Positions 61,504 through 62,071 of a stretch of DNA of 64,000 bases are shown one piece after another. The stretch lies in NCBI GenBank assembly GCA_944392135.1, contig CALXVQ010000003.1:8075-72074 (forward strand), written 5' to 3'. The notes beneath the pieces were generated by a model, which did no database searches, had not been told where the DNA came from, and was given only the letters and a program-made list of their open reading frames with translations. Source of the DNA: an uncultured Rickettsiales bacterium. GTDB lineage: Bacteria; Pseudomonadota; Alphaproteobacteria; Rickettsiales; UBA1997. The translations under genes were made by a program, and so were the position numbers. Each line of letters starts with the position of its first letter. The stretch's first letter is position 1.

Positions 61504-61524
61504 AAAAACTCCGTTTTTAAGAAA

Positions 61525-61554
61525 TTGAAAATTGAAAATTGAAAATTGAAAATT
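61525..61554. repeat. Tandem heptamer tract (TTGAAAA) x4 on the plus strand
   Basis: Lies between the groEL ribosome-binding site and the inserted four-helix-bundle gene. It is the reverse complement of the tract at 62034-62068. Confidence 0.9.
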
Positions 61555-61679
61555 AATTTTTCATTAAAACATAATCAAAATATTTTAATCAATATTCACA
61601 ATCTTACAATTAAACAACTTCATTAATAAAATAATAAAATAAACTATAAATTTGAAAATTTAATAATTAAAAATAAAAA

Positions 61680-62030
61680 TTATTTAGCTTTTGATGTTTT
61701 TATAATTTTGATTAAAATATTTATGATTTCATTTACTTTTAAAATATATTCATTAAAATTGTATTCCACAATTTTTGATTCTTTTAATAATTTTAACCAA
61801 TATCTAGTTTCAACACCTTCTTTTAAAGATATTGAAAGTTTAGAAATAAAATCAGCTTTACTTTGAGCTTGTAATGCTTCTTCAATATTAGCTCCAATGC
61901 TTGTACCAGATCTTAATAATTGTTTAGATAATATAAATTCATTATTTTTATTAAGTATTTTATATAATTCAATAATTAGTAAAGCAAAATCAAAGCTCTT
62001 TTTTTGTATAATATTATCTGATTCAAACAT
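61680..62030 (-). CDS. Four-helix-bundle protein (23S rRNA intervening-sequence protein / Avd-like family)
   Basis: FDFALLIIELYKILNKNNEFILSKQLLRSGTSIGANIEEA...SKADFISKLSISLKEGVETRYWLKLL matches, from memory, the TIGR02436-type pattern (LxRSxxSIGANIAEG...F..kl.ia.kE..Et.yWL.l). The start is set at ATG 62030, because the tracked TTG at 62042 lies inside the heptamer tract. Confidence 0.7.
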   Translation of the reverse strand: MFESDNIIQKKSFDFALLIIELYKILNKNNEFILSKQLLRSGTSIGANIEEALQAQSKADFISKLSISLKEGVETRYWLKLLKESKIVEYNFNEYILKVNEIINILIKIIKTSKAK

Positions 62031-62033
62031 AAT

Positions 62034-62068
62034 AATTTTCAATTTTCAATTTTCAATTTTCAATTTTG
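62034..62068. repeat. Tandem heptamer tract (AATTTTC) x4 plus AATTTTG
   Basis: Lies between the groES stop (62072) and the four-helix-bundle gene start. It is the inverted partner of 61525-61554. Confidence 0.9.
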
Positions 62069-62071
62069 GAA

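Follow-up and report, generated by a model that had tools for sequence, protein, structure and literature searches.

A putative intervening-sequence-type cassette: a four-helix-bundle gene between inverted heptamer tracts in the groES-groEL spacer of uncultured freshwater Rickettsiales

Genes and heptamer tracts of the groES-groEL spacer

In the 64,000-nt stretch of DNA analyzed here (the window; contig CALXVQ010000003.1), which belongs to an uncultured Rickettsiales bacterium, the chaperonin genes groES and groEL are separated by a spacer that holds a protein gene of its own. The gene encodes a four-helix-bundle (4HB) protein of the 23S rRNA intervening sequence (IVS) protein family and is bracketed by two tracts of tandem heptamers in inverted orientation, hereafter the arms. 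All coordinates are those of the window, and the groESL operon lies on its minus strand. The central features are as follows.

62072 to 62359, minus strand: groES, 95 aa, stop codon included in the coordinates (Pfam Cpn10, E = 1.2e-31)
62033 to 62066, minus strand: upstream (5') arm, AAATTG(AAAATTG)3AAAATTA, 34 nt
61680 to 62030, minus strand: 4HB gene, 116 aa plus stop
61522 to 61555, minus strand: downstream (3') arm, TAATTTTC(AATTTTC)3AATTT, 34 nt
59836 to 61503, minus strand: groEL, 555 aa, stop codon included in the coordinates (Pfam Cpn60_TCP1, E = 7.1e-81)

The spacer (61504-62071) measured 568 nt, as a preliminary description made from the sequence alone had stated, compared with 35 nt (L177-L180) and 20 nt (L181) in the closest relatives that carry no insert; loci of relatives are cited by such L numbers. 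The 116-aa open reading frame (ORF) that the description had placed on the operon strand was present as well, and its assignment to the TIGR02436-type proteins was borne out by profile searches, in which both family models scored above their cut-offs: PF05635 with E = 1.9e-25 and 89.6 bits (cut-off 33.8) over residues 5-107 of 116, and TIGR02436 with E = 1.5e-29 and 102.4 bits (cut-off 24) over residues 8-114. The protein also matched chain A of PDB entry 2RLD (E = 8.7e-30; residues 4-114 aligned to 7-119). This entry (BT_0352) contains five chains, and the S23p protein of Xanthomonas is a homopentamer, S23p and Avd both being pentameric (PMC4990558). The 4HB/S23p protein is still called functionally uncharacterized (PMC4990558, PMC10053308).

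The 5' arm begins 5 nt past the groES stop and finishes 2 nt before the 4HB ATG, and the 3' arm finishes 18 nt before the groEL ATG, just 5' of GGAG. The two arms are exact reverse complements over 34/34 nt, and the loop that they would close measures 477 nt. Tandem Repeats Finder reported period 7 with 100% matches on both sides of the ORF (4.9 copies at 62034-62067 and 4.7 copies at 61522-61554), so the inverted heptamer tracts of the preliminary description are both there. A pattern of three heptamer units gave 12 overlapping matches in the window against 0.00 expected from 100 shuffles. When RNA from groES to groEL was folded, the 34-nt stem was present in both the minimum-free-energy (MFE) and the centroid folds, and the energy was -128.1 kcal/mol compared with -96.2 +/- 5.2 kcal/mol for shuffled RNA (z = -6.1). 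The closing helix was also predicted by RNAalifold on the full spacers of seven lineages. The pairing around the ORF that had been suggested earlier is thus predicted again, with a corrected length: the stem is 34 bp (48-50 bp in relatives) rather than about 28 bp. The 4HB gene has no Shine-Dalgarno sequence, and its start codon lies at the foot of this stem.

The terminator scan found no terminator-like site between groES and groEL on the operon strand. A candidate promoter of the operon lies upstream of groES.

62403 to 62431, minus strand: candidate operon promoter, CTTG (62431-62428), 18-nt spacer, CTATATA (62409-62403)

This candidate, which is a consensus resemblance only, ends 43 nt upstream of the groES ATG. 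The pattern CTTG-N18-CTATAT had a single match in the window (0.19 expected) and recurs upstream of groES in L003 and L182; the stricter alphaproteobacterial RpoH pattern CTTG-N16-18-CYTATNT gave no match.

Four further features of the spacer and its edges were recorded.

62068 to 62089, minus strand: 9-bp perfect hairpin GGAATTATT-CAAG-AATAATTCC, in the MFE and centroid folds
61645 to 61679, minus strand: degenerate heptad-like stretch TTTTTATTTTTAATTATTAAATTTTCAAATTT, immediately after the 4HB stop
61556 to 61621, minus strand: conserved "right-end" spacer module GAAGTTGTTTAATTGTAAGATTG...GTTTTAATGAAAAAT, kept across lineages
61501 to 61521, minus strand: groEL leader hairpin, GGAG Shine-Dalgarno sequence (61509-61512) in the loop and AUG region paired, in the MFE fold

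The first hairpin takes in the final codons of groES together with the stop codon and lies immediately 5' of the upstream arm. By eye, it measures 10 bp in L008 and L014 and is weaker in other lineages, and such a hairpin could shield the new 3' end after cleavage. The pairing 3' arm of the window lies about 140 nt beyond the 4HB stop. In other 4HB loci the median distance from the stop to the 3' arm is 3 nt, and the degenerate stretch is probably a decayed original proximal 3' arm. The right-end module carries a motif, TTTTAA(A)TGAA, to which the leader right in front of the 4HB ATG is complementary in relatives. In the cassettes of L006, L007, L172, and L182, the stem reaches 48-50 bp because a conserved AUUUUAAAUGAA motif ahead of the 3' arm pairs with the leader immediately preceding the 4HB AUG. 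The helix of the groEL leader (RNAalifold columns 640-647/658-665) is kept in six to seven of the seven lineages. This AU-rich hairpin is shared at homologous positions by the window, L003, L006, L007, L008, L172, and L182, and it could be a thermometer-like element of a heat-shock gene.

Several searches of the surroundings were negative. A hidden Markov model built from an alignment found no other 4HB gene among the six-frame ORFs of the window, the 4HB protein matched none of the PADLOC defence families, and the neighboring gene lists contained neither a reverse transcriptase (RVT) domain nor a template/variable repeat pair near the cassette. No transposase or recombinase was present inside or adjoining the cassette in the Pfam lists of the window and of the relatives' loci. 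An Rfam search of the window at gathering score returned one tRNA only, and a search of 61400-62600 at E <= 1 returned nothing relevant. Neighboring genes with Pfam assignments include those for HAD hydrolases, Cpn10, Cpn60, serine dehydratase, LptD_N, and LpxB. HAD-family hydrolase genes flank groESL at 59051-59776 and 62557-63246 (both plus strand, divergent or convergent), an outer synteny common only to the closest strains. A 2,625-aa ORF at 33978-41855 (plus strand) had no Pfam match at E <= 0.001.

Solo heptamer tracts occur elsewhere in the window.

28838 to 28865, minus strand: solo TTTTCAA-type tract, preceded by a TTTTAAATGAAA motif, inside a composite dispersed repeat
29043 to 29075, minus strand: solo tract of 4.7 units, in the composite-repeat unit that follows
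51707 to 51734, plus strand: solo tract of 3.7 units, within another cluster of palindromic GC-rich repeats

Pattern search thereby recovered the dispersed tracts that had been listed earlier at 28.8, 29.05, and 51.7 kb. The boundaries of the 3' arm (ATTAATTTTCAA...CAATTTCTTA) are identical to those of the solo tracts at 29.05 and 51.7 kb. The clusters at 28500-29500 and 51200-51900 consist of dispersed repeats of composite build. Their units are 190-280 nt long, and each joins an AT-rich module to a solo heptamer tract and nested GC-rich palindromes (GGATTGC...CTCGCAATGAC / GTCATTGCGAG) in a genome of 26% G+C. In appearance these composites are reminiscent of Rickettsia palindromic elements.

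Inheritance and exchange of the cassette

We next compared the operon with those of relatives. Close relatives were metagenome-assembled genomes of uncultured Rickettsiales from lake and gut metagenomes; no relatives were found among viral contigs. The order groES-4HB-groEL was observed at loci L001-L015, L172/L173, and L182, in at least six lineages (window/L012, L003/L013, L014, L006/L007, L008/L015, L172, and L182), with differing outer synteny. GroEL identity among the insert-bearing lineages was 93-99.6%. The closest locus, L012, has GroES and GroEL proteins identical to those of the window and a 4HB protein that is 98% identical. The nearest outgroups (L177-L180 and L181), with GroEL proteins 90-93% identical, have the ordinary spacers given above, without heptads. 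Because the outgroup spacers are ordinary and free of heptads, the comparison indicates that the insert is a derived, inherited character of the clade, and that both arms arrived with it. The survey of groESL spacers that the preliminary description had recommended thus found the insert clade-wide and neither insert nor heptads outside. Its suggestion that the cassette had landed in the operon does not hold if a recent event was meant, since the insert has been inherited across a clade with at least 93% identical GroEL.

The pairwise ratio of nonsynonymous to synonymous substitution rates (dN/dS) of the 4HB gene was 0.07-0.27 at dS values as high as 1.8; the corresponding ratios were 0.02-0.13 in groES and 0.02-0.18 in groEL. 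These values indicate that the 4HB ORF is under purifying selection.

Two types of cassette were distinguished by their arms. G-type arms (TTGAAAA/TTTTCAA) occur in the window, L012, L003, and L014, and A-type arms (TTAAAAA/TTTTTAA) in L006, L007, L008, L172, and L182. The change from G to A in every 5' unit is accompanied by a change from C to T in every 3' unit, and an odd ATGAAAA unit in L007 and L172 is mirrored by TTTTCAT in the opposite arm. In an anchored alignment of the arms, 97.4% of cells were paired and five pairs were changed on both sides, while slid controls were 35-68% paired.

The distribution of the two types conflicts with the groEL tree. Between L003 and L172/L007, dS was 0.05-0.08 for groEL but 1.1-1.9 for the 4HB gene; between L008 and L014, the values were 0.044 and 1.18. 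Pairwise alignments showed 97-100% identity through groES and again from the groEL leader onward, with sharp breaks of identity on the left in the first heptad and on the right inside the tract. Remnants were visible outside the A-type arms: L172 retains three unpaired G-type units, (TTTTCAA)3, beside groEL, and L008 retains AAAUUGAAAA outside its 5' arm. Given the tree conflict and breakpoints located at the edges of the tracts, we conclude that arms and ORF have been swapped together, with the tracts as the junctions. Because the arms travel with the cassette, the matched arm changes would not represent many independent compensatory events.

The right end of the cassette also varies in number. 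The right-end module with the 3' arm (about 120 nt) is present once in the window, three times in tandem in L012, and four times in tandem in L014. At L012 3400-3780 and L014 3440-3750, where the copies are degenerate in L014, one 5' arm faces several possible 3' partners.

Genes about 70% identical to the 4HB gene of the window were found at two unrelated places. The first (L174 1014-1367) lies between tsaE and polA and has heptad inverted arms; the second (L175 2501-2854) lies upstream of aspS and has inverted arms of the same TTGAAAA heptamer (G-type), with two mismatches, both G.U-compatible. The insert-free outgroups, the cassette swaps on near-identical groES and groEL, and the homologues at tsaE-polA and aspS agree with the earlier characterization of the element as mobile.

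Heptad arms in the 4HB family and in known elements

Furthermore, we surveyed 153 further 4HB loci, which are the closest relatives outside groESL (53-70% identity), in Bacteroidota, Balneolaceae, Ignavibacteria, Chloroflexi, Elusimicrobia, Peregrinibacteria, Absconditabacterales, and other groups. A JGI metagenome scan yielded relatives outside Rickettsiales only, which were used for this survey; the nearest non-Rickettsiales homologues belong to Ignavibacteria and Bacteroidota. In the 50 nt before the ATG of the 153 loci, self-match at lag 7 was 0.527, compared with 0.29-0.37 at other lags and 0.25 in a control region 350-400 nt upstream. The tracts lie a median of 10 nt from the start codon and have mostly two to five units (median 3.3), and their heptamers are lineage-specific (AATTGAT, AATGGAC, AATGATA, AATTTTA, AGTTTAG, and GAATGAG). 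An inverted copy scoring at least 15 was found in 71/141 loci, starting a median of 3 nt after the stop, and the mean score of the inverted copies was 15.7 compared with 9.5 for arms paired with other loci. The order of non-identical units was mirrored between the arms beyond unit-permutation controls in 26 of 86 loci (4 expected). In a crude ORF-based count, 82 of 115 cassettes (71%) had ORFs of their own orientation on both sides, at median distances of 47 and 38 nt, and 2 of 115 opposed both neighbors. None of the 153 loci was next to groES or groEL, and no conserved 23S rRNA motif was present in any of 170 related loci. This survey, which takes to other phyla the look at 4HB copies and their flanks that the preliminary description had proposed within the genome, found period-7 tracts family-wide, half of them with an inverted copy. 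These results indicate that heptad arms are a property of the 4HB protein family.

Among IVSs that carry an ORF, only that of Coxiella burnetii has been examined closely. It is inserted in 23S helix 45, measures 428-444 nt, and has two to three tandem GACAGAT heptamers, their number depending on the strain, directly before the S23p start codon (PMC4990558). It forms a 28-bp stem, is excised by RNase III with a cut at the first repeat, and has a decaying ORF without a usable ribosome-binding site (PMC4990558). The groESL cassette resembles it in the S23p/PF05635 protein family, in the tandem heptamers of strain-variable copy number directly upstream of the ORF's start codon, in the near-perfect terminal stem of about 28-34 bp around an insert of about 430-480 nt, in the poor or absent Shine-Dalgarno sequence of the ORF, in its co-orientation inside a host transcription unit, and in its sporadic distribution. 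It differs from Coxiella and other rRNA IVSs in its host, which is the mRNA spacer between groES and groEL and not 23S helix 9, 25, or 45. The ORF in groESL is intact and under purifying selection, whereas that of Coxiella is decaying, and the groESL 3' arm lies about 140 nt past the stop, behind a conserved module of which tandem copies can occur. RNase III excision has been demonstrated for Coxiella; for the groESL cassette it would be expected by analogy. By location the cassette is not a strict member of the rRNA IVSs; it shares all their other testable features.

The free-standing TIGR02436 genes of Bacteroidota, Balneolaceae, Ignavibacteria, cyanobacteria, and the candidate phyla radiation (including BT_0352 of 2RLD) are the closest non-Rickettsiales relatives (55-68% identity). 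They share the period-7 tracts at the start codon, the inverted copy after the stop, and the position between co-oriented genes. None is in groESL, however; their compact cassettes have the 3' arm close behind the stop (median 3 nt), and their heptamers differ (AATTGAT, AATGATA, AGTTTAG, and others). The Avd proteins of diversity-generating retroelements have a homologous four-helix-bundle fold and are nucleic-acid-associated accessory proteins (PMC10053308), but the groESL cassette has no reverse transcriptase, template repeat, or variable repeat nearby. Against the criteria for miniature inverted-repeat transposable elements and insertion sequences, inverted ends are present, neither the cassette nor its flanks hold a transposase, and by eye the junctions show no duplication when set beside empty sites; an enzyme encoded elsewhere in the genome might act in trans.

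Cleavage between neighboring cistrons has other precedents. Early mRNA of phage T7 has RNase III processing sites between cistrons, and Segal and Ron reportedly described in 1995 how groESL mRNA of Agrobacterium tumefaciens is cleaved between groES and groEL in a heat-dependent manner, that is, in the same operon and the same bacterial class. In both, an intercistronic double-stranded element or cleavage is said to uncouple the fates of neighboring messages. These precedents reportedly involve short local hairpins without a gene, whereas here arms 477 nt apart enclose a protein gene and cleavage would have to follow from their pairing.

The taxa named next for their intergenic heptamer repeats are rich in 4HB genes. 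Heptamer simple-sequence repeats are over-represented as GGGAATC in Xanthomonas and GGGGAYT in Nostoc, and Xanthomonas has 70-75 convergent inverted heptamer pairs per genome (PMC4692102). TAACTGA heptamers occur in Beggiatoaceae, Bacteroidetes, and cyanobacteria, often ending beside start codons (PMC4679880). These repeats resemble the arms in having two to six tandem units, in being intergenic, and in often abutting a start codon; S23p/4HB genes, however, are unmentioned in PMC4692102 and PMC4679880. Our literature search, which left most subscription journals uncovered, found neither a report connecting heptad inverted arms with 4HB genes outside rRNA nor a description of a gene inside groESL.

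Elsewhere in the window, a complete type II CRISPR-Cas locus was observed at 8068-14830 (plus strand). It encodes a 1,200-aa Cas9-like protein (HNH_4, RuvC_III), Cas1 (11687-12625), and Cas2 (12622-12966), and in its array (13077-14830) a repeat of about 36 nt (ATTCTAACATAGGAAATTAAAAACGCAAGCTATAAC) recurs about 25 times with a period of 66 nt. On another matter, the figure legend of a CRISPR-association screen lists "23S rRNA IVP" among array-linked domains (PMC10910872). Given the heptad tracts around 4HB genes, this link might partly reflect repeat detection.

Proposed working, rival readings, and meaning

We interpret the locus as an IVS-type cassette, a promoterless 4HB gene between inverted heptamer tracts that sits co-directionally in the groES-groEL spacer of uncultured freshwater Rickettsiales, and we consider this interpretation, together with the following working, reasonably probable. 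A single groES-4HB-groEL RNA would be transcribed from upstream of groES. In this RNA the two 34-nt tracts would pair as a perfect duplex, and in relatives the 48-50 bp version would cover the leader of the 4HB start codon. The duplex would loop out the insert of about 480 nt, bring the groES stop and the groEL ribosome-binding site back to within about 25 nt of each other, and hide the 4HB start codon. RNase III would then cut the duplex, freeing the 4HB message and separating the groES and groEL messages as in the excision of an rRNA IVS. Arms and ORF would be replaced or moved as a unit, with the heptad tracts as exchange points. Judged from the length of the duplex and the Coxiella precedent (PMC4990558), the cassette is probably an RNase III substrate, and it probably uncouples groES from groEL expression in the organism. 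Co-transcription, pairing in vivo, cleavage by RNase III, an effect on chaperonin expression, and a function of the 4HB protein are what we infer. The preliminary description had also envisaged a re-joining of groES and groEL RNA, to which nothing points.

Several observations weigh against this interpretation. The covariation between the arms rests on very few independent events. Among the arm mismatches of 105 family loci, G.U pairs (48) were not in excess over A.C pairs (71), although this comparison is not clean, being dominated by unit heterogeneity (T/G, A/G); the lack of a G.U excess means that it gives no proof of selection acting on RNA rather than DNA. One 5' arm faces three to four tandem 3' arms in L012 and L014, and the (TTTTCAA)3 tract of L172 is unpaired, so one-to-one pairing is not the sole constraint on the tracts. 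No rnc gene was visible within the 64-kb window. The right-end module holds a possible internal promoter (TTGTAA-16-TAAAAT), a weak consensus match only. Finally, cutting the mRNA of an essential, highly expressed operon would seem costly unless compensated.

The rival that survives best holds that the heptad tracts act primarily at the DNA level and that RNA pairing is incidental. The tracts would mark the ends of a mobile cassette as its terminal inverted repeats, or serve it as sites for recombination; the cassette would be mobilized in trans, or the repeats would let it be exchanged through recombination or slippage. The breakpoints of the cassette swaps at or inside the tracts, the solo tracts with identical boundaries inside dispersed composite repeats, the single right-end module of the window against three in near-identical L012, the variable heptamer number among Coxiella strains (PMC4990558), and the missing G.U excess are all as this reading would have them. 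We nevertheless regard it as unlikely: neither a transposase nor a recombinase lies in or beside the cassette, and comparison of the junctions with empty sites by eye revealed no evident target-site duplication. The prevailing co-orientation of the cassettes with both neighbors (82/115, against 2/115 with neither) and the 5' arm's place next to the start codon suggest a transcript-level logic, and the homologous stem of Coxiella is a demonstrated RNase III site (PMC4990558).

The heptads might instead be binding sites for a repeat-reading protein, perhaps a ring-shaped 4HB oligomer comparable to TRAP, that controls translation of the 4HB gene and, via the leader tract, of groEL, the stem being a competing conformation. 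Avd binds nucleic acid. In most of the 153 loci the tracts adjoin the start codon, their periodicity is kept while the heptamer sequence varies by lineage, and a tract stands directly 5' of the groEL Shine-Dalgarno sequence in every cassette-bearing lineage, even where it has no partner (L172). The five chains of 2RLD and the pentamers of S23p and Avd (PMC4990558) would suit such a ring. Yet the unit number is broad, with no peak at five, and the arms are mirrored copies and not independent arrays, which makes this reading quite improbable in our judgment. A specific match of five repeats to one pentamer was considered and found to be unsupported by the broad unit counts (median 3.3).

That the 4HB protein has been domesticated as a chaperonin partner, with the arms as left-over scars, would account for its purifying selection and for the same gene position, embedded in groESL, in at least six lineages. 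We consider this very unlikely, given that two divergent alleles have been swapped between near-identical groESL backgrounds, the closest homologues sit at unrelated loci, 0/153 other family members are beside groES or groEL, and the arms are perfect and not decayed. Least credible of all, and hardly worth entertaining, is the resemblance to a sigma-32 -35 element that had been pointed out earlier, by which the TTGAAAA tract would act as a tandem -35 element that drives the downstream genes under heat shock: TTGAAA does resemble the Escherichia coli sigma-32 -35 core, and sigma-70-style scans list several TTGAAA-based matches in the tract, but these scans are uninformative (22 matches against 11.6 expected at 26% G+C), no CCCCAT- or CYTAT-type -10 element follows the tract, which lies downstream of groES, half of the lineages have TTAAAAA instead, tracts of this kind with unrelated, lineage-specific heptamers flank 4HB genes family-wide in many phyla, and a better candidate promoter lies upstream of groES.

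The nature of rRNA IVSs and the role of their 4HB ORF have been open since the early 1990s. The IVS-type cassette described here has the complete IVS anatomy in another host molecule, an essential heat-shock operon, with an ORF under purifying selection, and it suggests that IVS-type elements also reside in protein-coding operons and are exchanged there as whole units. Its two exchangeable alleles with matched arm differences would amount to natural "swap" experiments and offer a simple test system. The heptad signal connects three things that have been treated separately, namely IVS stems, orphan 4HB genes, and heptamer microsatellites. A far wider generalization, which we put forward as speculative and rather unlikely as a whole, would make ORF-bearing IVSs widespread transcript-resident cassettes (in rRNA or mRNA, across many phyla) with a double-stranded closure as insulation, heptad-mediated movement or exchange, and a 4HB ring that reads the heptads in the manner of TRAP, the known heptamer repeats being their arms or footprints. 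If this were true, the 4HB ring would control its own expression or mobility, the cassette would colonize any strongly transcribed unit, and the heptamer repeats of Xanthomonas, Nostoc, Beggiatoaceae, and Bacteroidetes would be cassette arms and footprints. The main value of the groESL cassette may be that it provides a tractable handle on the function of IVS elements and of the 4HB protein.

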